A stretch of 62,149 nucleotides of DNA, counting the filler, from Dugesia japonica (Eukaryota), in NCBI GenBank assembly GCA_001938525.1. It is 6 parts of 6 records of this genome, joined end to end, with 100 filler letters (N's around TTAATTAATTAA, not from the genome) between each part and the next. Parts side by side here need not be neighbours in the genome. Positions count along the whole stretch, not along the records: positions 31,378 to 44,848 come from MQRL01585100.1; 5 more parts are not named here. The stretch is one strand, 5' to 3'. Of this stretch, positions 13,001-62,149 are shown piece after piece. The notes beneath the pieces are model-generated. The model saw only the letters and a program-made list of their open reading frames with translations. It was not told the DNA's origin and searched no databases. The translations under genes and the position numbers were made by a program. Position 1 is the stretch's first letter. Each line of letters begins with the position of its first letter.

Positions 13001-13123
13001 GATTATCATTTCTTTATATTGATTTTTTAAAATTTATTAATTTATTACATTTTATATATTTGTTTTAACCAATCAATTAAATTAAATCCATCAAAACACA
13101 ATGTTCTTCTTAATTCATTAATT

Positions 13124-13576
13124 ATGATTACCAATATTAGTTACAGACGTGAAGTGTCGCAAGAACTAACAGAGAAAATGAGCTTTCTTACAGGCAAACC
13201 ATGACCATTTAAACTCAAAAGTGATAAATTTANNNNNNNNNNNNNNNNNNNNNNNNNNNNNNNNNNNNNNNNNNNNNNNNNNNNNNNNAAACCGCATGAT
13301 TTGAACCCTATGATATAAAAGAATTTACAATTACAATCGCTAACAATTGTCGTAAATATATGATTTTCAATAAATTTGTATAAATTAGTAAAAATAGTCA
13401 ACTGTTGGTACGAACCAGAGTTATTTCCTACTCTAAGATTTATAAAATATGACACTTTGAGTTTAAATGTGTTCTCAACAGGGAAACTAGTAATACTAAG
13501 AATTAAAAATTTGTATTTTCAGGGATATATGAATATCATTACTTCAGATTTGTTTAATTTGCTAATAAAAATTTAG
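13124..13576 (+). pseudogene. Compact divergent TATA-binding-protein-like gene (~150 codons, 3 in-frame stops, 56-N gap)
   Basis: One frame from ATG 13124: MITNISYR...LQLQSLTIVVNI*FSINLYKL...WYEPELFPTLRFIKYDTLSLNVFSTGKLVIL; YEPELFP and VFxTGKxV match the TBP core repeat (YEPELFPGL...IFVSGKVV). Confidence 0.8.
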
Positions 13577-13769
13577 ACATTTCGCTACACGGATGCACAA
13601 CATTTACAACTCAAGCACAAAAATATCAATTTAGATATTTAATTTTTAAATAATTAATATATTACGTTGTGGGTTTTGATTTCATATATAATATAATACA
13701 TTTCATTATTATTTCTTGTAATTTTAATAATGAATTCAACAATTATTGAAAATATAATGAAAATGAAAG

Positions 13770-14038
13770 ATGTTTTTGGTAAGAGAGGTTTGATTTTTAT
13801 TAAACTTTTAATTTTATTAGTAAATTTAATTTAGGAATGCTTAAAGGCATTGGAGAAACGCAGGAGGATTGACGAAGAACAATAACCAATGCTCCCCGAC
13901 TCTATTGTAAATCAGTACATAGCACCGGATTTTTGCACACCTGACTGTATCAGGTGTGCAAAGTTTAATCTGATGATTGCCATGGAGAACCATCTACCTG
14001 AATTGATCCAATATAATGACTATTTTTGTTATTATTGA
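13770..14038 (+). pseudogene. Small two-exon gene for an unknown ~70-aa protein with CxxxCxxC
   Basis: ATGTTTTTG|gtaag (13779) ... ttttag (13834)|GAA gives MFL-ECLKALEKRRRIDEEQ*PMLPDSIVNQYIAPDFCTPDCIRCAKFNLM...; AATAAA just after the stop; one in-frame stop. Confidence 0.5.
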
Positions 14039-14384
14039 TAAAAATAATAAATGTATTATTATTCAGTCTTTGATTTATTTATTTAGTTTTTTATTTAGTT
14101 GTTTTTAATAAAATTAACAAGATTTATTACGTAGAGATTTNNNNNNNNNNNNNNNNNNNNNNNNNNNNNNNNNNNNNNNNNNNNNNNNNNNNNNNNNNNN
14201 NNNNNNNNNNNNNNNNNNNNNNNNNNNNNNNNNNNNNNNNNNNNNNNNNNNNNNNNNNNNNNNAAATACTGTATAAATACCTTATAAGTAAATATTTTTA
14301 ATGAATCTATATGGTTTAAGAGTGTATTATTTGCGTAATTACCTTGTATTATTTACATAGAAATTTACATTATAAGATTTAAGA

Positions 14385-15050: not shown

Positions 15051-15449
15051 AAAATTATATAACGAGAAATCCATTATCAAATTATCAACTTTAAAATATA
15101 ATATTAAAAAAATCAATTAATTTAATTAAATATAATTTTTTTACATATAACAAATATCACATAATTCAATGTCTTTACAAATAGAAAATATCGGATAATA
15201 TACTGTCCTTTTCTATCTTCTCTTTCAAGATCGGAAATTCCTTTTTCTAAAAAAATATAGTGAACAAGATTTTATTTAATTCATTAAGATTTTATAATGT
15301 CCATAAGCCATGCTCATNNNNNNNNNNNNNNNNNNNNNNNNNNNNNNNNNNNNNNNNNNNNNNNNNNNNNNNNNNNNNNNNNNNNNNNNNNNNNNNNNNN
15401 NNNNNNNNNNNNNNNNNNNNNNNNNNNNNNNNNNNNNNNNNNNNNNNNN

Positions 15450-18170
15450 TTTTGTTCTTTACCATTTTCTTCATCGTCTTCATTGTATACCTTTAAATAG
15501 TTTTGATGTTGAATAGCAGTTTGCTTCAGATTAACTACTTTTGCTTTCATTGTTGTGGTAGAATCTTCCTTCTTTAAACTATAACATTTTGGTCTTAAAA
15601 ACACCAATTCCATATGGGTTTCTCTTTGGTCTTCATCCTTAAACAATCCGATTTGGTTGGCTACTTCACAATAATATAGTATATGATCTTTTGGATAATT
15701 GCTTGTGTCTAACAAACCATCTAATTTCATTTGTGCCAGGAGCTGGATTTTGTCTACTCCAGTGCAAGCAAAGAAAAATCTGTATGTATCCCCGGCAATG
15801 ATATCTATTTTACATTAAAAACGTTGACAATACATTTCCAGTTCTTGATATTGCAGCTGGTACATTCGCAGTTTACTTAGATCCAGCAACACTTGGCCAA
15901 TATAACTTGGTCGATTCAAGCAAATGTTCTCTTTATCCAGCAACACAGCTGTTAGTCCATCAGCTATATCTAACATCTTTTTAAAATGAACTTTGATAGT
16001 ACAAGTTACAAATTTCTTTTCATTATTACATAATCTAAAATTCATTCGCTTTTTCAAATTTTCCACTGTCTTATCATAAAGCGCACTATTTAAAAGCTTA
16101 TAAAATCCTATTCAAATTTAGTTTTTGATGCAACTCTTCTTGTAGAATTTGCATTGATGTAATTTACAAATATTTTAGGCGGTTTAAATTTCACTATTCT
16201 GTGAACGGTAGTTACACGAGCTCCCAGTTTTATCCTTGCTTGCACTGGAGTAGACAAAATTCAGCTCTTAGCACAAATGAAATTAGATGGTTTGTTAGAC
16301 ACAAGCAATTATCCAAAAGATCATAAACTATATTCTTGTGAAGTAGAATAAGAATATATAGCTTTAACAATTTCCAAAATATACGACATAGTGTTGTTTA
16401 GGCTTATGTGCCAACAGCAGTTTCCTCACTTTTGATCCAGGTGGGCATTTATGTTCCGGAGCTAATAGTAGCGAATCTAATGTAGCATGATTTTCTTTAG
16501 GTATTTCGAGATCAACTTCCAATAAATATCCAACATCAGAATTTTCATTTGCATATAAAATCTGTTGATAAATTTCTTCTACCTTATCTACAAATTCAAA
16601 GTCTTTAAATGCAAGTACTGTGTTAAGGCGCAACCGTATAAATTATTCGCATCTATATAAAGCAGAAAAGTCTTATCATCTGCCCGTACATAATGTCTGT
16701 TTACAAATGTCATTCCACCACGAATTCCGACTTCAAATAATTGATGCATTTTTGCATCCTGGAATAATTCTATTGACCTATCCATTGATTTGAGAGCACT
16801 TGACCAGTTCAATCCTGGTAATGAAACAAATCAAAGCAGCTCCTGCTCATGTTCTTTGAGTGCTTTTTTTCGAATTGTTTAAAATACATCAGCTAATAAA
16901 TAAATGTCTAACTTCATATAGTGCAACATATAGATTATTGCTTTTTGATTTCATCCAAGCTGACTTTGCCATTTCATATTCCTGATTTTATATTTCGGGC
17001 CATTGTTCAGGTAATTATTTTTAATTTGCTAGCATTTGATATAATGTAGCAAATTTTTATGGAAATACTCCTTTACAATGGTGTCCATTTGGAAATTCAG
17101 ACGACATTATCGGCCAACTTTCAAGAGTTGCAGTTAATGATGAGAGTGATATTTTTGTTGTTTGTGCAATCGGTTTGAGGTTCCAATGTTTGAATTTATT
17201 AAATGCATACTTAATAATATGATGTAAATCATAACCTTTGAAGTTATGAAATACAACAGGCACGTCCACCCGAATCTTGCGTAATTTATAACATTCATTG
17301 CATGCTGCTCCTATGAATTTTCCGGAAAGGTGATCATGATCACAAACCAGCGTTTTACCTCTATTCTTACACATGTAACAGTGTGTACTCTTCATAAATT
17401 TTTCTTGTTCTATTGTTGTGATAATCATGTTTTTATTCATATTTTTCTTGTACTAGTGTGCTAATTTATTTTTCACTAACTGCTCTGCAGAAATTCCACC
17501 ATTTAATTCTCGCCAGAAAACGAATAGTATTCACTTGGTTTTCTTGCATCCAGTATTGGTATTAATAGAAATCCGACAGCTATTGGAACATGTTTAACTA
17601 AACCAGTATCATCCAGTATTAGAATTGCTTCTGTATCAGCATATATCACAAATGCTGGTGTCATTCTTTTTCCATAATCCTTGAATTTCAATTCTTTCTC
17701 TTCTAGCATTGTTGTTTTCTCATTTATTTGACTACATAAAGCCATATATTGATTAAATGTAGACTGTGAATAAAATTCATGCAGATATTTTGTGAACCAT
17801 TTTCTCTGCATTCGACATTTTATTGACTGAACATGTAAATTTAACAATCTATTCAAATTTACTACACCTGTATAATGGTAATTCGAAAAATTATATCCAC
17901 ATATAGATTTTTATATAAAATTTCGTTTTTTTAAATCCTCTTTATTGATTTGTTTATTACATTTGAATACAGTTATTGCCAGGTTATTTTGTTTTTCAAA
18001 TTTCGGAATATTGATGAGCTTCGTCGGTATCTTCTACTCATCATATTTTTATTCATTTAAAAAGCATTCATTTATGTGGACGATGACGATTATTCTTGAC
18101 TACATCATATTTTAACCCTGCTAAAATACTGTACATAAAGCATTTATTATCTTTATTCTAAACATTAATG
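15450..18170 (-). pseudogene. polB: Polinton-type protein-primed family B DNA polymerase with endonuclease-VII-like Zn insertion, frameshifted
   Basis: In order: NKDNKCLMYSILA, IYADTE (ExoI), CYMC...DHDHLSGKFIGAACNEC, VFHNFKGYDLH (ExoII), IRGG, YIDANNLYG (motif A), KLLNSALYDKT (B), AGDT (C), IGLFKDE, LRPKCYS. Confidence 0.93.
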
Positions 18171-22335: not shown

Positions 22336-24454
22336 TAGTGCATCCAGTACCGGTAATACCGATACCGGTATACCGGTATTACCGGACTTCTTTCTGGTAC
22401 CGAAATACCGGTATTAGGTTGGCTTAATAATGGTATTTAGGTATTGGATCAAAAAAATATATACAACAGTGCCAAGTATGCTCATTGTGAGATACAATAT
22501 TATTGATTAGTTTGAGTTTTTCAAAATAAATTATTTTTAAGGATTATGATTTTAAATTAGTGTATTAAATGTTTTTTTTAAAAATAATGTTGTTTAAATA
22601 TTAGACATTTTTTGAGTTTTTTTAAAATTTTATTTGTAAATTACTTTCATTAATTATTTTAAGAATTATCTATTTATTTGAATTGATTTTTTGTATTTAT
22701 TTGTAAAATAAGATTTTTATATTGTTAACTTAAATGTTAGTAGGTAGATAGTAGCACAAGGGCACAATTTGGCAATGAGCCAAAATTCGGGCACAATTAT
22801 TTTTAAGCAGTTATCGAGCCCTCTCCTCCCCTCCCCCCGGGACGGCTCGGAAACACATTACGCTTGAGCTGCATTTTTTAATCATGATTTTTGTGATCGA
22901 TTTTTTTTTCTAAGATTTTTTTGATCGGATCAAAATTTTTTTTGATCTGATTAGTTTTTTTATCCTGAAGGTGTGTGTGTGTGTATTTTTAAATTTTAAA
23001 TTTTCTGTGTGTTTGAGTTGTTAAGGTGATTTTTAAAAAGTAGATGTGTTTGTGTGTGTGTAAAAGACTGGAAAAAACGAGGAGGCGTAGCTGGAGATCT
23101 TTGATATAATTTTTTGGGGATTTTGAAGATTTATTTGTTGTTGGACAAAAAATTTATCACAGCGCAAGAATTCACTTTTATTGACAATTCCGATTGAAAT
23201 TCATTCAAATAAATACGTTAACGTTAGTATCTTTGCATTGAAATAGCAAGAATTTAATTTAAGAATAAATATTTTATGTCTAATGGAAAGTTTTATATTA
23301 GTCTATTATCCAGAAACTACCAACATTTCCCAAAAAGTATTCAAAGAGTTCAGCACCTGCGCACGAGTAGAGGGACTGACTGATAATTTGCAGCCGATAA
23401 TCGCTAAGGTTCGCACCGTTGTAAAATTGTTTTGCCGTTCTCAGACAAAAAATGATAAAACACTCCAAATATACACAGTAAACGAATTTGGTAAAGCCCT
23501 TCTCCGAATACTCGACTCCAAAATTCGTTGAAATAGTCTGCACACAATGTTGGAACGTTTCATGAAATTGAAAAATTGTATTTGCAAGTCTTTGATTGAC
23601 CTTGAGTCCAAAATTGAGATAACTGATAAGGAGTTTGACACAATTTCACCTTTTGTATCATGTCTTGCGCCAGTGAAATTGGCCATAGGAGCATTGTGCC
23701 GAAAGGATAAAACATGGTTGTCAGCCGATACAACACTAATGTTCATTGTAAATAACCATGGAGACACGGATAAAACTGTTAAATTGAAAGCTACATTAAT
23801 GCTACGAATAAATGAGCGACAGAGAACTTTTTCTAGTTTGCTGCAATATCTGCACAAAAGTAATCAACGATACTACTATTTGGATCCAGCACTGTCATTT
23901 GAGCACCTTAGAAAATCATCTATTGTAAATGCCAAAGTTTGAATGAATAAGCAATTCAATCAGCGAGCAGGTAAACTTCTTCTTTCGACTAGCGTTTTAT
24001 CTGATAGCGATTTTGTTGACAGTACTGCAAACTTGTCATTGAAAGAAAAGGTTGATGTGGAAATTTTGAATGATAAGAAGTGAAAAAATAAAGGAAGATT
24101 GAACGTTTCGAGAGATTTATCAAAAACAATCCGCGAGGAAATTGTAGTTTTCGAAGAAGGAGGAACTCGTGGAGCATATTTGCGAAATTCCTACGAATAC
24201 TTGAAAACTGTGAAACTGAATGACCTTTGTTTCTTACAGGCATATTTTACAAAGGAGAAAAAAGCGCAAAATGAAAACAAATCCGTAATTTTAATATTTA
24301 ATATTTTTTATTGAATCACTGTAAATTATTACTATTTACTTGAGATATTAATCATGTTTTAATTTTTTAAGTTTCAATACCGGTAATACTGGTATTGAAA
24401 ATTTTCAGTTTCGAAATACCGGTATTAAAAATATAGCCGGTATTGGATGCACTA
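22336..24454 (+). mobile_element. hAT DNA transposon, internally deleted, with transposase remnants (23283-24230)
   Basis: TIRs TAGTGCATCCAGTACCGG / CCGGTATTGGATGCACTA; 8-bp TSD CACTTGGT / CACATGGT; ATACCGGTA subterminal repeats; LILDSKIR*NSLHTMLERF = hAT TRWNS motif. Confidence 0.92.
22739..23100 (+). mobile_element. Polinton-like left terminus nested in the hAT element
   Basis: AGTAGGTAGATAGTAGCAC start, then C-rich run at ~22820; right boundary unknown. Confidence 0.55.
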
Positions 24455-25160
24455 CACATGGTTCACGGTATTTTCTGGCTAATTTTTCATATTTGTAGTG
24501 GCAATAGCAAGTTCCATCTGTTGATATTGCTTTTGTTAGTGCACCCTTTTTAGTTAATTTATCTCATCTCGTAGTTGCTGTACTTCGTTTGAATTTGTTT
24601 GACTCGAGAATAAGTGTACAACTTGTGAAAATTCGATTTGCGCAGGTCTATCAGCCAAGTTATGCCAATGAGCAGTTTTCCTTGGAGACTAGATGAGGAT
24701 TGATATTTTAAGGCATAGCTTTTAACATCATGCTTTTGTCTGCATCTTTGTAATTAGGCTATATCTCTTGGAAGTGTCTGCGTAGTTGTCTAAGAAGATC
24801 TGGCGGGGAATTAGTATTCCAGAGGTTTGAGGAAATACATTTTATCCACATGATATGAGGTCGGTAGTTTGCTGATGCTGATTATAACTTCTCGAAGATC
24901 TGTATATGGTGTTTCGGATTTTGTATCTAACAATTCTTGAAAAGTTGTCAGGACTGCTGACTGTAAGTTGGAGATAAGATGGATGTACTTGAAATCTTCT
25001 TTTGATATTCTTGAAATCCTGAAGATTGCTTTAACTCTATGAAGCAGCTTGATGGGCATTCGAAGTATTGTGGGAATTTCGTAGTTATATGGTTGCCCTC
25101 ATACGAACCGCTTCTGACACTAGTGTTAGGTTCGTGTGGTTTAAAATCCATGAATACAAG

Positions 25161-25378
25161 TAGTACATACAATACCGGCTATATTTTTAATACCGGTATT
25201 TCGAAACTAAAAAATTTCAATACCGGTAATACCGGTATTTAAACTTAAAAAATGAAAACATGATTAATATCTCAAGTAAATAGTAAAAATTTACAGTGAT
25301 TCAATAAACTTCTTTATTTTATATAAAAATTATAGATTTATTTTTTTTCTTTTGTAAAATATGCCTGTAAGAAACCAA
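25161..25378 (-). mobile_element. Second, inverted copy of the right end of the 22336-24454 hAT element
   Basis: Reverse complement of ~24230-24454. Confidence 0.85.
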
Positions 25379-26507: not shown

Positions 26508-29500
26508 TGTTAGTTACTGGTAAACTTTCTGAAAAGTCCATTAAAGTCAACAAAATTTTATTTATGACACTTCAAATCTTAAAAAACTATTTTTGAAAGG
26601 ATGAATATTTAAACAAAGTTTAAATATTTTTAAAAAATTCTTTTTAAGCATTTTCTTCAAACTTTAAATTGCAATTTCAATTTTTAATCCTTACACGCCT
26701 CTCGATTAAAAGAAGTTTTTAAGCTTTTCTACGTTCCTTTCTAGCACTTTTCCGTTTACATTTCGTAAACGATATTTTCTCTCAAGGACCTTTTCCTTGA
26801 TCTTGTATGGGCTTGCGTATCTTTTATTGTCTTTTGTTCTAGTTTTATAAATACTTCGTCTCCCACTTGGAATTGTCTTTTTGTAGACGTTATTTCCATC
26901 GACTCTTTGTCATCTCTTTGGCTGTCAAACCATTGTTCTCTGTGAATTCTCCTATCAAATATTAATTCTCCAAGTGATATCCCAAATGTCTTTTGTCTTG
27001 TTGCATTCAACATGTATTCAATCTCCGGTATTCTGTTACTCCAATCCTTTCTTCTATCTTCTACTGTGGCTGCATTAATACAGTCTCCGATTATACGGAA
27101 TTGTGTCTATGATTTCTAGTATTGACTTGAACAATGTACTTCTATATTCATCGATTCCATCAGATTCTTGAAGTTTTTCGATTCAAATTTCTTACCTCTG
27201 TCTACGCGAGCTTCTCTTGGTGCTCCAAATCTCAGAATCCATTTTTCCATTATCACTTTTTTAATTGTCTTATCATCTTGCTTGATTATTGCCATTATGC
27301 TTACATATCAACTGCATTATTCCACATATATATATTCGTCTGTTCACAGTCTCTCGAAAAGGTCCATTATATATCTTTTCAAATGGACAATTTGCGCTTT
27401 ATTTTACTGTTGTCTGTTTTGTTGCCACAGTATTAACTTTATTCTTTTGGCACGTTTCAAACTGTCTTATAACTTCTGTGATTGTCTTATTCAGTTATTC
27501 TATGTCGTAGTTGCTGATTATGTAGCTGATCATTTTCTCTGTTTTTGCATTTAAAAACAATGTATGTATCTATTTTATCATTGATATTCTTTTCTCTTTT
27601 GGAAAACAAATTTTACCGTCAATTGTTTTCACTATATTACTTTCGACTCTATACTTTGAATCTTTTCCTTCTTGAATATCTCGTTTGATTAATTTGATTT
27701 CCTCTATTCCCTCTTGCCATTTACATCGCTTTATCTTTATCATCTGATTTATCTGTCTTGTTTACATGTTCCCAATCTTTGGATATTCATGTTGCATTTG
27801 ATATTGAGTGCACGTTCCGCATTTCATTCTTGAGAACATATCTGCGTTTGTATGTTTCTCGCCTTGTCTATATATTATTTCTATGTCTAAGCTGCTAAGG
27901 TAATTCATCTATGTTTGGAACTGAGGTGTATCGGTTCGTTCGTCTTTTTCAAGTATACGATGGCTTTGTGATCTGTCCTTGTTATGATTTTTTCCATTTA
28001 AATAATGTTTAAAGTGGTTACAGAATTATTAGATTACTAGTAATTCTTTCAGTGGGATACAGTAACACTTCTCATGTGATGTTATTGCATGTGAGGCGTA
28101 ACCAATAACTCTTTCTCTACCATCAACATCATTTTGTGATTCTATTGCGTTGAAGCTGGCGTCAGTATCTAAGATAAATGTCTTCTTTATATCAGGAAAT
28201 CTTAAAATACGTGCTTCTATCAGTGCTTGTTTCATTTCTGCGAAAGCTTTCTCACACCCATCTGATCATATTAGCTTGGTACTGTTGCTTCCACATAATT
28301 CTTCTAGCGCTCTTGATTTCTTCGAATAATTCTTGATGAATCTTCTGTAATAATTGCATATTCCGGGGATGCTTCTCATGCTCTTTATGCATTTGAGTTT
28401 CTAAAAATTCTTGATAGCTTCGATTTTAATTGGATCTGTTAGAATGCCTTCTTTTTCTATTATGTGACCAAGAAATTTCACTTCTCTGCGTAATAGGTGA
28501 CATTTTACTGAATTCGATCGCAGCTCTGCCTTTTGAATCCGCTCTAATACCTGACCCAGAGTTATATAATGCTCTTTTAGTCCTTCTAAGAATATCATTA
28601 TGTCATCCATATACACCATTGNNNNNNNNNNNNNNTCCAATACTTTTGTCATTAGTTCTTGGAATGTTCCTGGGGCTGCTGCTATGCCGAATGGCATTCT
28701 TGTGAAGCAGCATTCACCATTTATTTGTCGAAAAGGCTGTTTTCTTTTGTGACACTTTTTTTAATGGTACCTGGTAATACGCGTTTCCCAAGTCTATGAT
28801 ACTAAAATAATTGGCCCATACAAATTGTCTAATATTTCTTCCACGTTTGGCATCGGGAAGGCCTGTCGTTCCGTAACTGAGTTTAGTTTCCTGAAGTCCA
28901 AGTAAGGTCTCACATCCTTTCTTTCTTTCTTCCAGTCTCATATCAGTGGTGTGTTCCTCTGTGCATTACATTTTTTATAATATTAGAGTCCGCTAAATTT
29001 TTCATTGCCGTATCTATTTTGTCTTCTAGATTCATAGGTTGTCTCCAAGGCTTCGAATTTATTGGATTATCTTTTGTCACTATCTTGGTGTTCCGCCAAC
29101 TTTGTGCATCCGACATCCCAGTTATCTGCCATGAATACTCCTCGATGTTGTACTATTACCTTTTGAGGTTTCTCGTTTCGTTTTGTCATAAAAAGTTTTA
29201 AAGCTCTCTGTTTTCTTTCAGCATCCTCAATTTTACAGCTAAACCTTGCGTCTATGTTGCAGATCCACTGCTCATCTTCACAATCCTTTGTTTTTTTCTT
29301 TAAACGGTATCCAAACTGGCGTTGCATGTCTATTTCTTCAACAGGATTCGGACTTATTTCTTCCACTACAGTGAATTGTACTGTTTTCTTACTGTTTTTC
29401 GATCTCCACTTCAACATATATATTGCCCGCAATGTTCAATTTGCTATTAATTGCACATTTTTACACGTCATCAGTTCCTATCAGCTCTACATTTGTCAGA

Positions 29501-40271: not shown

Positions 40272-40273
<2 letters not shown>

Positions 40274-41702
40274 TTGGGGGGAAACACCCGGGCGAAGAAA
40301 ATTAAGACCACGGTGGTCATCAAATACAAATTATGGGAAAGGAAGTAAATTACACAAAACGATTAAACGAAGAAGAAAAACCGGTACAACCATCGGATAG
40401 AATGATAAACCCAAAGATTAAATGAACCATATAAAGGAAGCCGATAATAATAAATTCGAACAATCCAACCAACCCGTCAAGTCATCCAATTAAGAAAAAA
40501 TTATCAAATTATTATTTGGATGAATAAGAAAAGTAGTTAACGAACGATTTAATTATCAAGAAATATTAATTAAATTAATTTCAAAAATAAAGTAAAATGA
40601 GGTCAAAATACGTTTTTTGCAAATAACTTTGCTTCGAAACTTCAAAGAACGACGGCACCAAAAAATTCCGGAAGAGAAAAACAAGGGTCATAAAGAATTA
40701 CTAGGAGGAAAAACTTCCCATCATCCGGAAAGGTACTGTAGGGTTTCCAAGATCGAACCAATCAGATACCTAAAAATAAAAATAAAACAAAGAAGGAACC
40801 ATTACATGGCCCTCTAAAAATACCTACCAATCAGAATTTCAAAACTCTACGAAAATTCTGGAATGACAGACCAACACCAATAAAATTCTAGAATTCTAAA
40901 ACAAAAATACCTACCAATGAGAACGGTGCCGGGTTGTATCAGGAAATCCTATAAAAGAACCCGTTTTTAAGCGAACTAACTACTAAAAAATTTTTTAACT
41001 CACTTTTGGTGTATTAACCACTATAAACCACTTTGGTGAATCAAAACAGCTAAGCATAACACAAGGAAGAAATCATAATTGCAGACGCTATCCAACTAAA
41101 TCTAGAAACCATTGAAACCGCTGATTTAGCAAGAAGAAAAACAGGAATCCCAGCAACCGAATAAAAGAATCACGTTTATTAGCGAATTTCATTCCGTTTG
41201 CAGAAAACGAAAATATTTAGAAAGTAAGCATGTGTTGCCTTAGTTGATGTTAAATTTTTATTACAATTTTTGTATATAAACCGTTATAAATAAATCAACA
41301 TTTGAAGTTAATTTTTTAGTTAATTTTCTAGTTAATTTTCTATCATGATTATATATGTATTCAATTTATTTTTAGGTTCAGCTAATTGGGTTTGTATGTT
41401 AAATTAAATAGAATTGCCTGATTCCTCATTATGCACATTTAGTAGACAATTCATATCGCGTTCCTACCGTTTATAGGGGAAATCCCTTTGTATTATCACG
41501 TAAAAATAATCACCAATGAATTGTTGTTTTACATTCTGGACATGATTGTTAATATAAAACAGCCAAACTAATTTTTCGACATTTACTTATAAATGCATAA
41601 AAATTACCACTGAGTCACAAAACCCCACACGCCATTAATCTACACAACTACACATCCGGAATCACCGATCAGCTTGTTTTTACGTTGCTGGGCAACCCAT
41701 AA
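40272..41702 (+). mobile_element. LTR-like sequence (~1.4 kb) inserted after a (TAA)n tract
   Basis: Starts TGTTGGGG, ends CCCATAA followed by PBS-like TGGCGAC (41703); CCAAT boxes ~40827 and ~40914, TATAAAAG ~40950, AATAAA ~41160. Confidence 0.6.
40820..40960 (+). promoter_or_regulatory. Putative Pol II promoter (two CCAAT boxes + TATA box)
   Basis: Duplicated AAAATACCTACCAAT(C/G)AGAA, then TATAAAAG about 35 bp after the second copy. Confidence 0.55.
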
Positions 41703-41749
41703 TGGCGACAAATCAAATTATAAATTCCAAAGAAGAATAACTATATTAA

Positions 41750-41995
41750 CCCTTAGTAGCCTGATTTACGAAAGTGATTTTTTTTAATATTATTGTGTTT
41801 GGTTATGGGTCTAGATGAAGGGAAAAATAGCTAAAAAAAATCACAATATTTATTTGTTTTTTTTTTAATTTCGTTGAAAAGAATATTATACAACAGTAAA
41901 ATACGAATAGCCAACCTGTTAAAAAAAACTAATAGTAATGTGAACATTCGGTTTAAAAGATTGTTATAAAAATTGAAACTCTAGGTTATTAAGGG
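41750..41995. mobile_element. piggyBac-like MITE
   Basis: TTAA|CCCTTAGTAGCCT ... AGGTTATTAAGGG|TTAA. Confidence 0.8.
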
Positions 41996-42231
41996 TTAAA
42001 TTAAGTAATTAATGGGGTTAGTTTCCCTCTATTCTTGTCTGAATTTTTTATTACTAANNNNNNNNNNNNNNNNNNNNNNNNNNNNNNNNNNNNNNNNNNN
42101 NNNNNNNNNNNNNNNNNNNNNNNNNNNNNNNNNNNNNNNNNNNNNNNNNNNNNNNNNNNNNNNNNNNNNNNNNNNNNNNNNNNNNNNNNNNNNNNNNNNN
42201 NNNNNNNNNNNNNNNNNNNNNNNNNNNNNNN

Positions 42232-42281
<50 letters not shown>

Positions 42282-42848
42282 CCACATTATTACTATTAAC
42301 CTTGCTAATATCGTCATCCATTACTATTATATGTATTAAATGAATTACTAGAATTGCCATATTTATAGACAGGTTGATTATTACTATTGTTAGTATTATT
42401 ATCGAGTTATTATTAATTGTTATATATAGTGTTATCGGTACTATCCTTCCTCTGATTATTATTATAAAGGATTATTATTAGTACTGATTGTGCCAATACT
42501 ATTATCAAGATAAATATTAGCATCATTATTATCTATACTATGGTTATTATTACTAGTATTCTTATTGTATTACTATTGTTGTCATTACTAATAATAAAAT
42601 CATTACTTTGTTCATCAGTGATCTGATAATTAATTCGGCTATAATTTGAAGTCATTCTCATTACCATCATTAATACGAGTTATCTTNNNNNNNNNNNNNN
42701 NNNNNNNNNNNNNNNNNNNNNNNNNNNNNNNNNNNNTAATACGAGTTATCTTAGTAATTTAATCGGCTGCGATTAGGGCTCTACTTTTTCAGGGGCTGAA
42801 TCACGAATAGAAAAAAAAATTTGTATAAGTTTTTCTTTTGTTTAGCTC

Positions 42849-43043
42849 ATGCCAAAAGAGTTGTATCATGCTCTATGTTGCATACGGCGGCAACGCCAGG
42901 CTAGTCGTGCCAAACAGTTGCTAGCACACTTTCTCACAAAAGGAAAAATCGAACACCCAGATAAAACAGATCTCTGCTGTTTCGTCGAGAATTTTCCCCT
43001 GGTCGAGAGGGTGGATTTAGACAAGGAGTGCTTCTTTCTTTGA
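42849..43043 (+). CDS. Small unknown protein (cassette ORF 1)
   Basis: Acceptor TTTTCTTTTGTTTAG just before ATG; GC higher than flanks; AATAAA at 43079. Confidence 0.45.
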   Translation: MPKELYHALCCIRRQRQASRAKQLLAHFLTKGKIEHPDKTDLCCFVENFPLVERVDLDKECFFL

Positions 43044-43281
43044 CATTACGGGTATCCGTGTATTTAAATATGCCACAAAATAAAATGTTGTAATCCCTAC
43101 TTTTCNNNNNNNNNNNNNNNNNNNNNNNNNNNNNNNNNNNNNNNNNNNNNNNNNNNNNNNNNNNNNNNNNNNNNNNNNNNNNNNNNNNNNNNNNNNNNNN
43201 NNNNNNNNNNNNNNNNNNNNNNNNNNNNNNNNNNNNNNNNNNNNNNNNNNNNNNNNNNNNNNNNNNNNNNNNNNNNNNNNA

Positions 43282-43509
43282 GTTGTTGAACGCATTCAAG
43301 CTTTTGGTGAACGACAGCGATACCAGACGTGGACGGGCCCAGATCGCACTCTAGTGACCCCATTCAATCACCAACCTCCTACTCCTCTCCCCGCTCCCGC
43401 GGTACAAGCCTTCATAAATAATCTTCTCTGGGGAGTAAGGAAACCCACAGGGGTGGCAGATGTTGAAAATGCACCCCCTAATATTGCCAGTGATAATAAC
43501 ACTCCCTGA
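43282..43509 (+). CDS. Pro-rich unknown protein, 5' end in gap (cassette ORF 2; not in supplied track)
   Basis: Open frame VVERIQAFGERQRYQTW...HQPPTPLPAPAVQAF...NNTP*; AATAAA at 43528. Confidence 0.45.
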   Translation, partial: VVERIQAFGERQRYQTWTGPDRTLVTPFNHQPPTPLPAPAVQAFINNLLWGVRKPTGVADVENAPPNIASDNNTP

Positions 43510-43662
43510 ATTTTTGTCTGTAGTAATAATAAATGCTTAGGCTATTGAATTAATGAATAGTTGTGATTCTTACTACTTAATTAAATGAGAAAAGATTTCG
43601 TTTAGTAATAACCATATTATCAGACCTTGTAGTNNTTGTAATAATTACCATATTCTTTTTAG

Positions 43663-44021
43663 TGCATTCGTCCTTGAACAAATCACAGGCCCCACGTAAA
43701 AAGTTGCGAGAGACCAGTGAAGACATTGACCTCACGTGGGATCTTTATAAACTAGCTAAGAGGCGATGGGAAGCGGAGACCGCTGAGGCCGAGGCTAAGG
43801 TGAAACGCTATAAGCGAAAATGTCTAACTTTTAAAGCGGAGATGGACGCCACCCAGAATCAAGAGAGGGTGTGGAAATCCCAAGTCGAAACTTTCGCCAC
43901 GGTTATTAAATCATACCAAGAACGTGAGAACCAGCTCGTCGAGAACATAGTGAAGTTGCGAGCCACTATTCCATTAGCCCTACTCTTGATTGATAAAGGT
44001 ACTCAGACTAATCGCTCCTGA
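43663..44021 (+). CDS. Coiled-coil protein with basic NLS-like stretch and C-terminal DKGTQT (cassette ORF 3)
   Basis: Intact 119-codon frame after acceptor TTCTTTTTAG|TG; AATAAA at 44051. Confidence 0.6.
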
Positions 44022-44137
44022 GTTATCATATCTACGATTTTGTTGCTTTTAATAAATTATTTAATTTGTATCTTTTCTAATTTGTTTCTCCAATTTCGAA
44101 TTTGAGTCTTGTCAACTTAACTATAATTTTGATTTAG

Positions 44138-44520
44138 TGACACGAATTAATTTTCCCAACAGCATCCGAAGGTGCCATCGCATATTGAGACGTCTTCTTA
44201 CTGAGAGACACTTGAAACGTAAGGCAGATAAGGCTATTTTAAAACATCTGGCCCAACGGGACCAGCTTATAAAGCGATTAGATTTAGTAGTTCGCAAACA
44301 GAACGACTTGGCGATTCAAACCAAAGCCTTAGAGGCCGATAATAGGAAGTTGTTATTTCGAAAAATAGACTTCCTGAAACAATATATCACCGATCTCTCA
44401 CGACAAATAAGCAATCCAACTATAATTCAATGGGACGATAATGACGATATCGCTGCCTTTAACTTTTCGGTAACCGACCCGGATCAGTGGTTAGATCCAG
44501 GGGCACTGGAATTACTATAA
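44138..44520 (+). CDS. Basic/leucine-zipper-like protein with acidic tail (cassette ORF 4)
   Basis: Intact 127-codon frame after acceptor TTTTGATTTAG|TG; AATAAA at 44541. Confidence 0.6.
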
Positions 44521-44698
44521 AAAATTCCTGTTGTCTATGAAATAAAATATATATAATTAATGTCGTACTTCTTTTCTTTTGATGATAATACTAGGGAAAG
44601 AATGGAACCCGAAAATAAAGGTTTATGGGTGGGTACCTTCCATTAAGGGTGAGGTCAACCGCCATAAACTGCAAACCTACCAAAGGGGCGGTAGGTCA

Positions 44699-44775
44699 AA
44701 TTCTTGAAAGGGTTCCCCTGAGGGCTGTTTTTTCCCCAGCCACGTTATTTTTCCACTCAACTCAGGTGGAACCCC

Positions 44776-44779
<4 letters not shown>
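44699..44779. mobile_element. LTR-like terminus; second copy at the window end
   Basis: ...GAAAGGGTTCCCCTGAGG...CAACTCAGGTGGAACCCCAATA is the reverse complement of 62078-62149 (TGTTGGGGTTCCACCTGAGTTG...). Confidence 0.75.

Positions 44780-44848
<69 letters not shown>
44778..44848. repeat. Palindromic (TAA)n(TTA)n microsatellite
   Basis: Directly visible. Confidence 0.9.
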
Positions 44849-47249: not shown

Positions 47250-50200
47250 GTTATGTTTCAAATTACATCCGTAACTCTGGCTTATTGCATTCAATTATTA
47301 ATTTGAATGAAATTTCTGATTTAAATGATAATTGGGCTCTTAAAATCATTTCAAATATTTCATTGAAATCTTATTATAGAAAGAGTTGTCAAGAAAGATT
47401 TTTGAATTTTCAAAAACAACATTTATCTACTGAAATAAATAACTTGAACGGTATAATTTCAAAGGATTATATAATGATTGTCAATGATTTTCTTAAATTA
47501 ATTGAAAAGCGCTACAAAGGAATTTCTATCCAAACAGATATTGTCTATAAATTACGTTAAGCTGTAAATAACTATAAAATATACGATGACAAGGAAACTT
47601 TAAATGTTAATAAAGCTCAGAGATTTGGTTTACTGGATTCTTAGTAATGAATATAATTCTCTACAAATTGGAAAATACTCTTTTAAAATTTCTGAAACAT
47701 CAAAGAAAATCCTTAGACTTAAAATTAGTAAACACTTGAATGGGATAATTGATTACCTAAAAAAATTTTTTGTTGAAAATATCAATGTTGATAAATCTCT
47801 TAACACTACTGTTGTGTTCCAAATTATTCTGCATTTTAACAAAACGATAAACAACAAGACTTGAATTTCAAAAGTTTATTTAGTATTACAAATAGTTAAT
47901 TCAAACAAATGATATTTGTAACGCAACACTGTGCCCCACCATAATTATGGAGTAGTTTAAATATGATTGATTGTTGGCTTCAAGCAATCTACAGAAACAT
48001 TTTTATCTTCGCCATTGATCTTGATTTTCAAGATTTTCATATCTGCACGTCGGTCGATCACTTCGAATGGGTCATCATATTGGTACTGTAAACCTCTCGG
48101 GCTTTCATTTCTTAACCAGTCGTATAATTCAATAGGAAGGAAGGTCTTGTATTTCGGTCTCCTTGGTCGATGTTGATTACCGTTAATTTATTTTTCTTCT
48201 TTTTCTGGTGATAGTTCGTCAAAATGAATGCTGATTTTCAGTTCCCCTGGAATTCGGATCTTTGAACCAAACACCATATGCGCTGTTGAAACTTCATTAT
48301 CTAAAAATATTGAATTACGTAATCCCAGCATTTTCTCGGCCTTAATGCAGTGCACTCTGAGTGCATTTTTTAATGATCTGTAAAATCGCTCAACATTTCC
48401 ATTACATTGTGGATGATATGATGTTGTAGTCCTGTGATCAATACCATTTTTATTATACATTTCTTAAAATGATGATGAGGTAAATTGCTTTCCTTGATCT
48501 GTCATCAGTATTTGGAGACTATCAAATCTGCTGAGCAATTCTCTTTCTAAAGCCGCAATAACATTTCCAGATGTTATCTCACCCAACGGCACTGCTTTAG
48601 TTCACGATGTGTGCCTGTTAGTCATAGTCAATAAATATTTTTTACCCATTGCATTTGGCAAAGGACCCACAATTTCAACATGTAGGACTTTAAATCTTTC
48701 AAAATTTGGTAGTGACCCTAAGGTTGATTTTTTGAGTCTAGATATTTTGGCTTTTTGGCATTTAAGACATTCTCTTGTTCCTCTGTTTATGTCAGATTTC
48801 CTGTTGGGCCATACATATCGTTGTTTGACTATTTTTATAGAGTTATTAGCCCCGGGGTGTGAGAAGTTGTGCAATCTCTGTAATTCTTTAAATCTAAAGC
48901 AACTTGGCAATATTTTTCTTTATAGGCCATTAGATACATCAAACATAACATTGTTGTGGTGTTTTATGATTAGCGAAGATTTTTGTTTTAAGTCTTGAAT
49001 CGATCTGTCGTGTTTTTGTTCATCAATTAAACGTTCTTTGGAAATTTGCAAAATTTTTTGTTCATTGTCATTTTCCGTTATCCTTGACAAAACATCTGCG
49101 ACTACATTATCGCTTCCTTTCAGGTATCGTATTTCAAGTTGGAATTTATTAATGTATTCAATCCACTCCCATTGTTTGTTTGATGGATCTTTCATTGTTT
49201 TCATGTAAGTTAATGGTTTGTGGTCTGTGCGCCATTTGCACTGATAGCCTTCTATTAAATGTTTGAAATGTTTGATTGCTAGATATATTGCTAAAAGTTC
49301 ACGATCAAATGTGGCATACCTCTGTTCTGTCTTGCTCAATTATTTTGATAAGAATGAGATTGGCTGTAACTTACCGTTACTGTCATGATTGAGACTGGCT
49401 CCCACTCCAGTGTTGGATGCATTGGTACATAAAATAAACATTTTGTTAGGATCTGGAAGTATTATCGTTGTTATGTGATACAAGTTGGATTTAGCGCTTT
49501 GAAATGCCATTTCTTGAGTTTCTGTCCATTTGAACATTTTTTTTATTTTTGCTGGCTCTAGCAACTAAATCATGTAAGGAAGCTAAAATATCCGATAAAT
49601 TTGAGATCATCCATTGATAGAATGTTAATCTTCCAATAAATCGTCTCAGAGCTTTTACATTCTGTGATGTCCGCAAGCTTATTATATTCGTTATATTCTC
49701 CGGAATTGGTTGAATACCTTTGATTGAGATTTGAAAACCAAGGAATTTTATTTTTGATTAATAGTACACACATTTTTCATAGTTGATTCTTAGTTTTGCA
49801 TTCATGAGCGTTTCTAAAACCAGTTTTAAATGCTTCTCGTGTTCTTTATCTAATTTTGAGAAAATCAGGATATCCTCAATGTATGATATTGCGTATTCTT
49901 GGTGCTGACTCATCAATTGATCTTTTGAAAGGTTTGAGATGCATTTTTAACCCAATTGGCATTTTTAGGTACTCGTAAAGCCAAAATGGTGTGATTACTG
50001 CAACTTTGTGCTTGTTTTCCGGTTCTCTTTCTATTTGGTGGCATACATTTCAAGATCTATCGATGAAAATATTGTGCTGCATGAAACTTGATTTAAAATA
50101 TCCGATATCTGAGGAATTGGATATCTATCGGGCTTTGTTGCTGCATTGAGTAGTTGATAATCCTTACATGGACGATAAGAGTTATCTTTCTTTTTGACAA

Positions 50201-53194
50201 CAACTATTGGTGAAGCCTATTTACTTGTACTTGGTTTTATCACATCTTGGCACAGAAGCTTATCAAATTTCTCTCTTACTGCTTTGAGAATATTTCTAGA
50301 AATTTGCCTAGCACGTTGAGCTACAGGAAATACAGAAGTGTAGTTGAGTTGGTGTGTAGATATTGTTTCATCATTATTTTCTGTTAGATTACTGAGTTCC
50401 ATGATCTTGCGAGTTTCTTGTGCTATTTCTTCTCTTCTGTGAATTTGGTTTTTGTTGCAATGAACAGTGATTTACATGTGCCCTAAGAAATCAGAGCCTA
50501 ATATTGGTAGACGGACGTCAGCAACTGTGAATGTTTATGTGAATGTTTCATTGAAACCTTTGATCCAAAATGTCAATTTTCATGTTCTAAAAGAGCTGAT
50601 CGGAACGTTATTTGCTGCATTAAATATTTTTGACGGAAGAACTCTGATATTTGCAACTTATGTCTATGAGAAAAGCAAAGTTTTTACTAGAAGTTTCAAA
50701 AGGCACTGTGAATATTGATGTTACCGATTTGAGGTTTGAGATCGCAGCTATCGACATCATTGAGATCCTTCATCTTTTTTTGAAGAAACTTTGCATGGGT
50801 GTTGGCATTTCCTTGCCTTTATTCCGAATCGTCTGTGAAAATAGCATAAATCATCTGAGCTTACTGTCTTGGCTGCTTCAATTGATTTGAGTCGAATCGC
50901 TGACATTTCAGTCTTTAGATCATTGATCATTGATATGATTTCTATGTGGTTGTTTGAGAATTGAAAAATTGGTTGAGCCTCGAAATCAGACTTGACGTTC
51001 GTTAATTGTTCTGCCATAAGTCCCAGATCTTTTATGGATTAGAGTCTTGTAAAGTTAAATGATGCGCTATTGATTTTGGAAGCGATTAAATGAATGCGCA
51101 ACGGAGCATTATATTGTTACTGATATCTGTTTCTCGATCGATCTGTTTGAAATGCCTCGACATTTCCCTTAGAATCTCTGATGGTTGTCGATCACCGTGG
51201 TGCCTTGATTTCTCAAAGATTTGCTGCATGTAGTATGACGTTGATTTTCTTTTGGTTTGAATTATGGCTTCTTTTAAATTGTCATATGCCATTTCAGAGT
51301 TGAAATCCAGGTATTTTTGAAATTTATGGAGAATATTTGATGGGAGATTTGATATTAAATTAAGGAACATTTTTTTATCTTGTGATATTGGATAGCTGAA
51401 AAATGACTTCGATCTGCATAAACCATTTTGAAGGATTTTCAAAATAATTTCGAAACTTGATCGAAACCTGATGGTTTTTGGAGATTTCACTTCTGACACT
51501 AATGTTGTGTTCCAAATTATTCTGGATTTTAACAAAACGATAAAAAGCAAGATTTGAATTTCAAAAGTTTATTTAATATTAAAAATACTTGATTCATACA
51601 AATGATATTTGTAAATTGGAAAATACTCTTTTAAAATTTCTGAAACATCAAAGAAAATCCTTCCACTTGAAATTAGTAAACACTTGAACGGAATAATTGA
51701 TTACCTAAAAATTTCTTTTGTTGAAAATATCAATGTTGATAAATCTCTTAACACTACAAATAAGATCCTCAATAAAAATTCGTTTAATAATAGAACTTTT
51801 AATACAATTTGTGAAACTGAAATGGAACTTGAAATTAATAATGATACTTCTGATAATTTGAATAAAATTAAATTTTGTGCTATTTCCTTAAATAATAGCA
51901 TTGTAAATAAAATTTGTGAAACTGTAATTGATCCTAAAACTAATATCGATTCTTCGGAAATTTTAAATGAAACTAATGAAGCCAAAATTTGTAAAATTTG
52001 TTCAAATTCTGTGAACATTTGTGAAATTGAAATAAATAACTACTCAATTAATTTGTGTCAAACATGTTTAAATAGTCTTTCTCTTAACTCCTCACAGATA
52101 TCAATGCTGAACCAATTGTTTCAACTAGTAAAATCTCAACTCCTATTTCAAAAAATTTACGTTTATCTGTTCAAAAGAAATTAGCATTTGTTAATAAATG
52201 ACGGCAAATATCTGCATCAGTTTGCATCCAAAATTCACTTAATTCTGTGACTGATGCAGAAAGCTCTATCATTGTCAATAATAATGATTGGTTTACTTAT
52301 AATGAAATTGATCTTTATCTCAGTAATCATATTAATAATCCTGTTTTTGCTCATTTGTCACCAACTATTGTCCAAATTTTTGCCTCAGGTTATTCGGAAA
52401 CAATTCTTGATATTCCATCTAGTATTTTTTCGGCTGATATAATTCTCTGTCCACTTAATATTAATTCATCAAACTGGATCTTATTTGTTTATTGGAAATC
52501 AAATATGTCTTCTTTTTATATTGATCTGATTCATCAACTTATAGACAGAAATGAAAACATAACTGCTTCAAATAAAGTTAATAGCGCGCTTAATAAAGTT
52601 TTAATTTCGACATTATTTTTTTGCACAATACAATTAAAAATCTAATTTATCAAAATAACAGTTTTAATTGCGGTCCTTTTACCTGTGCTTACGCTAGATT
52701 TCTTAATGATGGTTTGCAAGACTTCCCGAAAATTTCATTAGTATTATTCGTAATGAAGTTCAAAATAAAATTAAATTTAAACCTGAACAGGATAAAAGTG
52801 GGGGCTTAGTGACTCAAATTATTTTAACCTTAAAAAAGCTACTAGTTAAAGTTTTAAATTAAATCCTTGTCAGAATTGGTTGAATCACAAAAATGAAATT
52901 CCTTGTATTGTTTCTTTTCTTGTGTATTGGTTTCGAGAGTATTCATACATCTATATTTTGCAATGGAAATGACAGTTAATCTTATTGGTTAAAATAAGGA
53001 ACTTATCATTGATAATATAAGTTTTAAGCAATTCAAAAATGTTAATTTCGTTGCTTCTGTTATTCCAAATAATAACTGCTGGTGTTTACTAATTTATTCT
53101 TTAACTTAAAAAAATTAGTAACATGTTTAATTTCAATGATAGGAAAATAACTGATAGTCTATGGGTAATTGGTGAAAATGTTACTTATTATATC
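47250..53194 (+). pseudogene. Long degenerate ORF with Cys motifs and Ulp1/C48 cysteine protease domain(s), split by a Gypsy insertion; probably TE-derived (NeSL/R5-like non-LTR or similar)
   Basis: CKIC...LCQTC; DWFTYNEIDLYL, ILCPLNINSSNWILFVY, QNNSFNCGPFTCAYA = Ulp1 W..D..I / HW / QxNxxDCG pattern; second decayed copy from ~52870. Confidence 0.72.
47810..51613 (-). mobile_element. Near full-length degenerate Ty3/Gypsy element with short LTRs
   Basis: LTRs 47810-47928 (TGTTG...CAACA) and 51503-51613 (truncated); PPT GGTGGGGCACAG; PBS AGTGTCAGAAGTG; gag CYFHRRFGIKARKCQHPC; RH DRELLAIY...TDHKPL; IN HPG...C..CQ, YHPQCNGNVERF. Confidence 0.93.
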
Positions 53195-56575: not shown

Positions 56576-59500
56576 GACAATCTATGTAACAGCACTTTTC
56601 ACCCATATAGAACTTCAAATGGAGATCTCTTAATAGCGCTTTGATATGTTACATTAATTGAAAATTCAATCTTGGGAATGCNTTTATTCCAAGTAAATCT
56701 ATTCTTATCACTATTCATTGAAGTGACTAACGTATCTCTGACTGTTTTAATTGCTCACTCTGCTAGACCGTTGGCTTGATGTTGGTAAGGTGATATAAAT
56801 TCATGTGTAATTCTAAATCTTACACAAAACTCGCTCAGTTACCTTGAAAATTCTACCCGGATCAGATAAGATTGATTTGGTTTTCCAAATCGGTAAATTT
56901 ATTGGTTCTTTATTGCATATGATATTGTTTTTTCATCTTGTTTACTAAGAAGTATTAATCGAACTAATTTGCTAAATCTATCGATAATAACAACCAAGTA
57001 CTTTTGATTAGATTTATACTCAGAAAAGTAGGCCACATCTATTACAATTTGTTCTAGTGGTCAAAATTCCTCTCTTGGTAACAATAGTTCTTTTGTTTGA
57101 CCAGTGTAGACATTTCTTTTAGCACATATTTCAAATTTTTAAATTTTGTGTTCTATTTTTNNNNNNNNNNNAGGCCAGAAAAATATCTGTTGAATATATT
57201 TCACTAACTTCTTACTTCTCAAATGACATAGTTTTTCGTGCAAGAATTTTCTAATTTTGGTGAATGATTTTCTGGTATAACTAGTTTCTTCTCTTGTTCA
57301 TCTTTAATCACAATATTCCCCATTAATTTGAATTTATTTAAACTTTTAAAACATCTACTTTTCTTCACGTCAGTAATAACATTATTAGCCAAGCCTTGTA
57401 ATCATCGTGATATTGATCTTAGTATTCCATATTAGTTTTGCAACTTTTCAATATTTTCGTCATAAAATACATTTTCGTTTAAACTGTTTATAAATCAAAT
57501 TTTCGATTTAGTCTCCTTACCATCATGGTGTTTAGTTAAGCATTGAGTACATAGAGTTTTATTTTTTCTGAAAATCCCGTCAGCGTTACTGTGATCCATT
57601 CCTTTTCGATATTCTAAATCAAAATTAAATCCAGAAAAATTAGCAAACCAAGTCTGAAACTATGGACTAATTAGTTTATTTGTTTTTTTCATATAAGTCA
57701 AAGCTTTATGGTTAGTTCTTATTTTAAACTTTTTCCCAATCAAATAATGCTTAAAATGCATAACGAATTCATGAATAGCCAAAAGTTGTTTTATGGTTAC
57801 ACAATAACCTTTAATTTAAAACTCTCGACGCAAAACATATAACTTTTTCATCACCGTTGTTATCGTTTTGGCTTAGAACAACTCCAATAGCTCCAAAATT
57901 TGCATCAGAATCATTTTTTTGATGGATCAGGAAATGCTAATATTAGTGCTGTAGTTAATTCATACTTTAGCTTTTGGTAAATACTTTCAATTTCCTTGGA
58001 CCACTCGATCAATTTTTCATTTCCTGATATCATTGCATACATTAGTGCAGTAATAGTACCATAATCTTTGATAAATTGACGATAATAATTAGTTAGTCCC
58101 AAAAATGATCCTAATTGCGTAACACAACCTGGGATTGGTGCTTCTGAATTTTTTTTAATTTTATCATCATTTGTTTGAATTCTTTTTTGACTAATTATGT
58201 ACCCCAAAAATTCAATTCATCAGTTCCAAATACATATTTTACTAGATTAACTTTTAATTTTGATGCATTATTTAATTCAAATGCTTTTTCTAATCTTTAA
58301 TTATGTTCATCGACAGTTCTTCCATTAACTAAAATGTCATCTAAATAAACAATTACACCTTTATACAGCATTCTTTTAAAAATCAAATTCATTAAACTCT
58401 GAAAAGTTGCCGGTGCTGTACACAATCCAAACGGCAACCGGTTAAAGTAGAATTGTCCAATTTTAGTACTAAAAGTTGTTTTCATTTGTGAATCTTTGTC
58501 TAATTCAACTTGATAATAAGCCTGTTCTAAGTCTATAGATGAAAAAATAGTTGATCCATTTAAAGTATTCAAAAGTATGTTTATGTCAGGTTCGGGAAAT
58601 GAAATCTTCTCAGTTACTTCATTCAACCGTCGAAAATCCAAACACATTCGGATATAATCATTTTTCTTTGGTAGTATCACTAAAGATAAATTCCATAGGC
58701 TTTTACATGATCGTATAATTTTTGATTCTAACAAATTTTCAATTAATTTATCAACTTTATCTTCTAAATGCATTGGCTGTATTCTTGGATTTTGAGAAAT
58801 CGGAGGTACTTTAGTATTAACATGATGCTTAATCANTGTAGTGATTCCTAAATCAAATTTGGAAGCCATAAAAATCGATCTATATTTTTTAATAAGGTTT
58901 GCAATAAATGGAGTTCTGTCAGCAATACACTTTAATGTCGTCTTAACCCGATCACAATCCGTATATGTTGTATTTACTTCAGAAGAATCAATCAATTTTA
59001 AGTCTGCCAAGAATACTCCCCATAATTTCATCATATCGATTCCACCAAAAAAAACAGGAGAAATACTTTTAACAATAAAAATTTCTTTCATTAAAGGTTT
59101 ATTTTTCGTCAGACATTGATGGGTCTAGGGCAAAGGATTCGTGTAGTTTCTCACTCTAATCCTTGCAGAATAAATGATCTTGCAATTTCTTCAATTTTTA
59201 ATTTCTTTTCAAACACATCTGTAACCATTTTTTAACTCGAATCTCAAAATTTCTGTACTCGACTGTTCTCTGTTTTATTAAAGACAATTCCTTAACTTTA
59301 TGATAAATCGATTTTGTATTTGCAAATGTTTCCATAAACCATTTTTCAACCTTCTCATTAGTAACAGAATCATTTGAACAGGTAAATTCTTCCCATAGCT
59401 GTTTCTCATCACCTCTTAGGAGCATATCTAGCGCAAAAGCAAATTTCATTTGATTAAATGTCGCAAAATCTTTCGAGCGTGTATCAAATCTTCGGCATCT

Positions 59501-62077: not shown

Positions 62078-62149
62078 TGTTGGGGTTCCACCTGAGTTGG
62101 GAAAAGGCGACTGGGGAAAAACAGTCCTCAGGGGAACCCTTTCAAGAAT
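62078..62149. mobile_element. LTR-like terminus, same family as 44699-44779
   Basis: TGTTGGGGTTCCACCTGAGTTG...CCTCAGGGGAACCCTTTCAAGAAT. Confidence 0.75.

Follow-up and report, generated by a model that had tools for sequence, protein, structure and literature searches.

The window (the whole stretch of 62,149 nt analysed here) is rich in AT and contains many decayed gypsy-like elements. On its plus strand, an element of 4508 nt as assembled (about 4.5 kb) extends from 40272 to 44779, starting with TGTTGGGG and ending with CCCCAATA; it was delimited by its termini, its (TAA)n flanks and the phase of an ATAA duplication. The preliminary description had placed the start of the unit at 42830, whereas the true start was found at 40272, 2.5 kb further upstream. 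The element contains three internal gaps (42058-42231, 42687-42736 and 43106-43280) as well as two single N. Its left end at 40272 is the inverted partner of its right end at 44779, with one mismatch, and both ends are embedded in a (TAA)n tract, where a 4-bp ATAA duplication was in phase; lengths of 4 and 7 bp matched and those of 3, 5, 6 and 8 bp did not, which carries little weight inside a microsatellite.

The right terminus of a second, diverged member of the family was identified by blastn and by its fold on the minus strand at 62078..62149, where it is clipped by the end of the window. The terminus had been said to be present again at this position, and it is indeed a related copy (84.6% identity over 78 columns), but it lies on the opposite strand and ends in CCCCAACA, not in CCCCAATA. 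The element and the 62078 copy display the TG...CA termini with a short inverted repeat that are typical of gypsy-type LTRs, the 40272-44779 copy itself terminating in TA, not CA. No PBS-like TGG was found beyond the terminus of the minus-strand copy. When contigs of one DNA run, maybe the window's own source, were placed on 42737-44790, 3553 of them covered 29 of the 30 bins (407 at 99% identity or more, 1026 at 95-99%, 1688 at 90-95% and 432 below 90%), showing together with the 62078 copy that this is a dispersed multicopy family. Contig depth on the last 190 nt was far greater than on the rest of the cassette, and the GC-rich terminal segment at 44600..44779 (plus strand), with a depth far above that of the ORFs, is common to many related elements. 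Because of this contig placement and the deeper terminal coverage, the cassette is multicopy and its terminus is common to a wider group. A 13-bp stem with one bulge was predicted at about 44710-44774, and the same stem was present in both copies in the window (z of -2.08 and -3.42). Since the bases of an acceptor at 44766 are paired within this predicted stem, that site was not considered further.

The termini and the contigs thus corroborate the multicopy, LTR-like and very long terminal unit proposed previously. Neither a PBS, gag-pol nor a PPT was found linked to the element, and the metagenome and viral contigs scanned gave no match. From the termini, the phase of the duplication, the promoter layout described below and the copy number, the 40272-44779 element is likely a solo LTR. 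Its parent would probably be a large gypsy-like retrotransposon of a planarian host, similar to GLT and Burro in the sense of likeness and not of established membership.

Several other features were observed in the window. A 12-mer, TTAATTAATTAA, located between pairs of 44-N runs at 8847, 19735, 31322, 44893 and 53239, resembles an assembly join marker. The minus strand of 15314-17910 carries decayed frames, which by eye resemble a Polinton-type DNA polymerase B and gave an Endonuclease_7 match, and a 122-nt inverted repeat pair lies inside this Polinton-like stretch (15661-16346). A decayed gypsy-like element with RNase H and integrase zinc-finger matches was found at 47665-51757; it is bounded by direct repeats in permuted order, 47665-47809 matching 51613-51757 and 47803-47921 matching 51496-51614. 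Pieces of reverse transcriptase from other retroelements lie on the minus strand at 28401-28760 and 58297-59124 and, as far as could be seen, have no relation to the cassette. Finally, a MITE-like pair of 149-nt inverted repeats, 94% complementary and 704 nt apart, occupies 24307-25308, and degenerate tandem arrays extend over 2929-3180 (36-nt units) and 11900-14350 (units of roughly 42-118 nt).

Upstream in the 40272-44779 element, a promoter was predicted from the sequence at 40758..40955 (plus strand), with CCAAT boxes at 40758, 40827 and 40914, a fourth CCAAT at 40877 and a TATAAA at 40950; two of these CCAAT boxes are part of a 21-nt direct repeat. The CCAAT/TATA signals and several AATAAA, all inside the repeat, are candidates for the promoter and the poly(A) signal expected of an LTR. 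A non-coding leader exon was predicted at 40975..41223 (plus strand, 5'-end approximate), ending in A immediately before the donor GTAAGC at 41224. The 268 nt from 40956 to 41223 contain no ATG at all (P=0.012 by shuffling), and of the two matching donors that lie between the TATA and ORF1, AAA|GTAAGC at 41224 comes first. The splice-site scan also gave a possible 18-nt micro-exon at 41376..41393 (plus strand; TTTTAG| at its 5' side and |GTATGT at its 3' side), which ends in T, so that it would not complete an ATG. An AATAAA at 41160 precedes the donor of the predicted leader by 64 nt (41160-41230), an arrangement resembling the retroviral suppression of a promoter-proximal poly(A) site by a nearby donor.

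Downstream of the leader, four frames were found on the plus strand. The exon of ORF1 (42846..43084) has its own ATG and encodes a Cys-containing product of 64 aa (42849-43043), with an AATAAA at 43079. ORF2 (43282..43533; frame 43282-43509) is Pro-rich, with 75 aa visible, its start hidden in the 43106-43280 gap and an AATAAA at 43528. The exon of ORF3 (43663..44056; frame 43665-44021, 118 aa) begins at AG|TG, is open in phase 1 and ends with the C-terminal IDKGTQT, followed by an AATAAA at 44051; its product is a predicted coiled coil. The exon of ORF4 (44138..44546; frame 44140-44520, 126 aa) likewise begins at AG|TG in phase 1 and lacks Met; its product is predicted to form a coiled coil at residues 5-91 and bears an acidic tail with IQWDD, and its AATAAA is at 44541. 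The existence of four same-strand frames was therefore confirmed, but 43663 and 44138, previously listed among their positions, are acceptor positions and not start codons.

The GC content of the four ORFs was 0.41-0.51 as compared to 0.22-0.32 in the spacers, in agreement with the GC-rich frames and AT-rich spacers described before; as a control, a GC of at least 0.41 was reached in 2.1% of 1074 windows of 200 nt. The AATAAA noted after each stop was recovered too, starting 36, 19, 30 and 21 nt past the stops of ORF1, ORF2, ORF3 and ORF4, respectively. This signal was present 10-40 nt downstream of all four cassette ORFs as compared to 4 of the 154 other ORFs of at least 60 aa in the window, and of 1243 of 11360 AT-rich positions, giving a joint chance of 0.109^4 = 1.4e-4. 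After base shuffling (5000 shuffles), the frame remained open in 0.12% of cases for ORF3 and 0.04% for ORF4. The corresponding values of 2.3% and 4.0% make ORF1 and the visible part of ORF2 weaker, ORF2 being the weakest of the four frames. A cassette in a multicopy LTR-like element is thus real and non-random.

As proposed earlier, three pyrimidine-AG acceptors could be recognised, T-rich TTTAG sequences preceding 42846, 43663 and 44138, while the 5'-end of ORF2 falls in the gap. The ATG of ORF1 lies three bases inside its exon. ORF4 has no Met and the first Met of ORF3 is residue 60, which means that both need an upstream exon. At the acceptors of ORF3 and ORF4 the sequence is AG|TG, and phase 1 is the one open phase behind each of them (118 and 126 codons); an AG directly past the gap before ORF2 is also in phase 1. 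In the window, TG followed 10 of 182 acceptor-like sites. Since the predicted leader ends in A at 41223 and both acceptors are followed by TG, splicing would form an A|TG start codon. Donor-like sites at 43435, 43924 and 44219 could chain the exons, but about three of them were expected by chance (an estimate) and they were set aside.

In order to evaluate coding constraint, the variants among the DNA-run contigs were classed. Among the 40 of 145 variant sites listed, 26 were inside ORFs and, classed singly, comprised 12 synonymous, 14 non-synonymous and no nonsense changes, against an expected synonymous share of about 28% (p=0.036). By frame, 6 of 9 listed sites were synonymous in ORF3, 4 of 8 in ORF4, 1 of 4 in ORF1 and 1 of 5 in ORF2. 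ORF3 and ORF4 together, a grouping chosen post hoc, had 10 synonymous sites out of 17 (p=0.007); no synonymous excess was seen in the listed variants of ORF1 and ORF2. Two of the 10 listed indel rows were inside an ORF, cancelling each other in one contig, and two single-contig joints delete portions of ORF3. ORF3 and ORF4 look coding by these sequence measures, so the coding capacity suggested previously is backed in these two frames by synonymous excess and openness, but ORF1 and ORF2 do not share the excess.

Single-sequence AlphaFold models, which alone say little, gave one long helix for ORF3 (residues 18-117, mean pLDDT 87.7) and for ORF4 (residues 5-91, mean pLDDT 80.7). Out of six periods tried, hydrophobic periodicity peaked at 3.5 in both, and for this reason the two modelled products are likely coiled coils. 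The IDKGTQT at the C-terminus of ORF3, picked after the fact, fits the LC8-binding pattern [KR]xTQT and is a candidate LC8 motif. The IQWDD in the tail of ORF4, also picked after the fact, is close to the kinesin-light-chain peptide LEWDD of SKIP (PMC6214655), with Q in place of E. Each strict pattern (LC8-type and kinesin-light-chain W-acidic) occurred once in the 14815 aa of window ORFs.

The searches carried out yielded no homologs of the four ORFs. All four were below the curated Pfam cut-offs, with no BIR, MATH, BCL2 or ankyrin match, and compared mutually they showed no detectable paralogy. The large protein searches covered ORF3 and ORF4, with ORF1 and ORF2 searched less deeply. A word-indexed search among sequences of near length retained none of 18 candidates for ORF4 and none of 2 for ORF3. 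The one HMMER match of ORF3 in 1.84 billion representatives was rejected, its score being a sum over a nematode tandem repeat at 25 bits per unit. In the ESM Atlas, ORF4 had no usable match and ORF3 gave generic low-recognition matches; Foldseek against viral structures gave none for ORF4 at E<=0.001, and PDB sequences none for ORF1. Metagenome and viral contig scans for the cassette produced nothing usable, and no Rfam or tRNA match was obtained.

Expression was assessed with three raw RNA runs that shared the species label, of which 1888, 1749 and 1592 million letters were read (about 25%, 25% and 6% of the runs, and about 5.2 billion in total). RNA reads, like the DNA contigs, were placed on 42737-44790, downstream of the leader region (40975-41223). 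The three runs contributed 49, 9 and 3 placed reads, nearly all of them on the terminal motif and with unlike flanks. Depth on 42737-44668 was zero, save for 0.49 in one bin, and no splice joints on the ORFs were listed in the three runs, which counts against expression of the cassette in the sampled RNA. Silencing would explain this absence if it is assumed. The alternative terminal exons suggested in the preliminary description are consistent with the anatomy of the locus, but not one spliced read accompanied them in the three runs. A core of about 40 nt at 44699-44740, spanning the 5' arm of the stem predicted at the terminus, drew nearly all the RNA reads (61 in three runs), coming from family members with differing flanks. 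As these reads derive from other members, related elements are transcribed at a low level.

On balance, we lean towards the four frames being accessory genes, which the promoter of the solo LTR of a large planarian gypsy-like element would drive as alternative last exons, a reading that sequence evidence suggests with modest confidence. Transcription would begin at about 40975-40980, downstream of the CCAAT and TATA boxes, and an ATG-free leader exon ending in A at 41223 would be spliced to one acceptor per message. The A|TG junction at 43663 for ORF3 and at 44138 for ORF4 would make the start codon, while ORF1 would start at its own ATG and the start of ORF2 would lie in the gap. The mRNA would terminate at the AATAAA of the chosen exon, giving one protein per message, and RNA skipping those signals would continue as far as the conserved hairpin at the terminus and, if the element were complete, into gag-pol. 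The products of ORF3 and ORF4 may be coiled-coil adaptors, possibly for microtubule motors, and the host would likely silence the family via PIWI. How a full-length RNA passes four poly(A) signals is left unexplained by this model, and the gaps could conceal another leader or join different copies. A more far-reaching proposal, which we advance tentatively and hold to be rather doubtful, is that in a superfamily of planarian retrotransposons the LTR is a self-contained cassette, in which a single promoter and a single non-coding leader supply several alternative last exons with a splice-made start, so that solo LTRs stay protein-coding, and that the two coiled-coil adaptors, serving opposite microtubule motors (through LC8, a dynein light chain, and through kinesin light chain), move the particles or the RNA of the element.

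The same cassette might instead receive a common N-terminus, through a phase-1 donor, from a shared upstream exon that is coding or located elsewhere, for instance in the 42058-42231 or 42687-42736 gaps. The gaps do conceal sequence, and the phase 1 of ORF3, ORF4 and the AG past the gap before ORF2 suits any phase-1 donor, but such an exon leaves the TG after both acceptors unexplained against a background of 10 in 182. If it were coding, the available choice in 41224-42845 would be three M-started frames of at least 20 codons, short or of low complexity, and we consider this arrangement unlikely. That the unit is self-contained and non-autonomous (LARD/TRIM-like or a DNA element), and not the LTR of an autonomous retrotransposon, appears distinctly unlikely: no internal region is attached to it in the window and short inverted termini suit other classes too, but the TG...CA-type termini, the 4-bp duplication phase, the LTR-like promoter layout and a terminal segment common to many diverged elements speak against it. 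It is very unlikely that the frames are non-functional, either open by chance in a GC-richer LTR or exons of an ordinary host gene. The lack of homologs in our searches, the three RNA runs without expression and the individual weakness of ORF1 and ORF2 are in line with it; chance, however, is opposed by the joint AATAAA placement, the openness odds of ORF3 and ORF4 and the synonymous excess, and host-gene exons by the multicopy nature and element termini of the unit and by each frame having its own stop, unlike internal host exons.

Operons show short AT-rich spacers in which a poly(A) signal is followed by an acceptor, and the cassette spacers look operon-like in this respect. Resolution of an operon-like unit by spliced-leader trans-splicing, as raised in the preliminary description, was nevertheless disfavoured if the host is a flatworm. 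The flatworm spliced leader ends in AUG according to PMC9851317, and such a leader is in frame with ORF1 (65 codons) and with a weak second acceptor of ORF3 at 43689 (110 codons), but the open length in phase 0 is 0 codons from 44138, 13 from 44163 and 4 from 43663. ORF4 could not be made by trans-splicing because phase 0 stops at once at 44138; an in-frame AUG from the leader, or a start codon belonging to the cistron itself, was found for ORF1 but neither for ORF4 nor at the main ORF3 acceptor, which renders this explanation highly improbable.

LTRs are regarded as regulatory DNA, and their solo forms as remnants that do not code for proteins. If alternative last exons are indeed used, any solo LTR of this family could give rise to as many as four proteins in the absence of gag-pol, and a compact switch composed of splice choice and a split start codon would escape ordinary ORF finders. 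The cassette reading also offers a hypothesis, open to testing, on the coding content of the PIWI-silenced GLT-type transcripts that serve as transposon markers in planarians.

Accessory ORFs located in or over the LTR and reached by splicing from the 5' leader are known in retroviruses (MMTV sag, HIV nef and foamy virus bel/bet). Their place is U3, ahead of the promoter, and they depend on a single viral poly(A) site, whereas the four frames of the cassette are downstream of the predicted promoter and have their own AATAAA each. A start codon split across a splice junction occurs in the env of Drosophila gypsy, but this is one internal gene and not a set of alternative last exons within an LTR.

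Among planarian elements, Burro/GYPSM1 are giant gypsy-like LTR elements of more than 30 kb, with a polyprotein of about 5000 aa containing BIR, MATH, BCL2, ankyrin and env-like domains. They would share with the cassette a gypsy-like LTR type and accessory ORFs in an AT-rich genome, but their accessory domains are in the polyprotein or in an upstream internal ORF, and the text consulted in PMC6431247 makes no mention of LTR-internal ORFs. The accessory domain B-IAP of Burro1 was reported to aid host stem cells (PMC13465017, citing Lee et al. 2026). The Ogre elements of dicot plants, whose LTRs measure 1.9-6.5 kb and which carry additional ORFs without a known function, resemble our element in their long LTR and extra ORFs, the latter being located in the internal region, unlike those reported here (PMC6431247). 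ORFs inside planarian LTRs are not described in the portions of the literature consulted, including PMC6431247, PMC8532177, PMC13465017, PMC11410931, PMC10954484, PMC8797187 and PMC13238120, and novelty of the LTR cassette is provisional, as Grohme 2018, Lee 2026, supplements or Repbase may hold a description.

The nearest parallel comes from GLT2 of Schmidtea mediterranea, which is PIWI-silenced and rises on smedwi-2 RNAi; in the available sections of PMC8532177 and PMC10954484 it serves merely as a marker and its ORFs are undescribed. Its probe is 485 nt long in the supplement of PMC8532177, of which the first 400 nt shown there, on the forward-primer strand, were compared by eye. The sequence is not the same as that of the cassette, and the canonical AATAAA is absent from the spacer of this shown part. 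However, the probe has the same layout: an ORF comes to its end, an AT-rich spacer follows, and after TTTAG|TG the sequence stays open in phase 1 for 79 codons, many of them for Glu, Lys or Gln. There is also a weak motif likeness to ORF1 (F/Y-L-T, H-P, C-F) and to ORF3. By analogy, this layout, in a second family, would be the best outside support for a split start codon.
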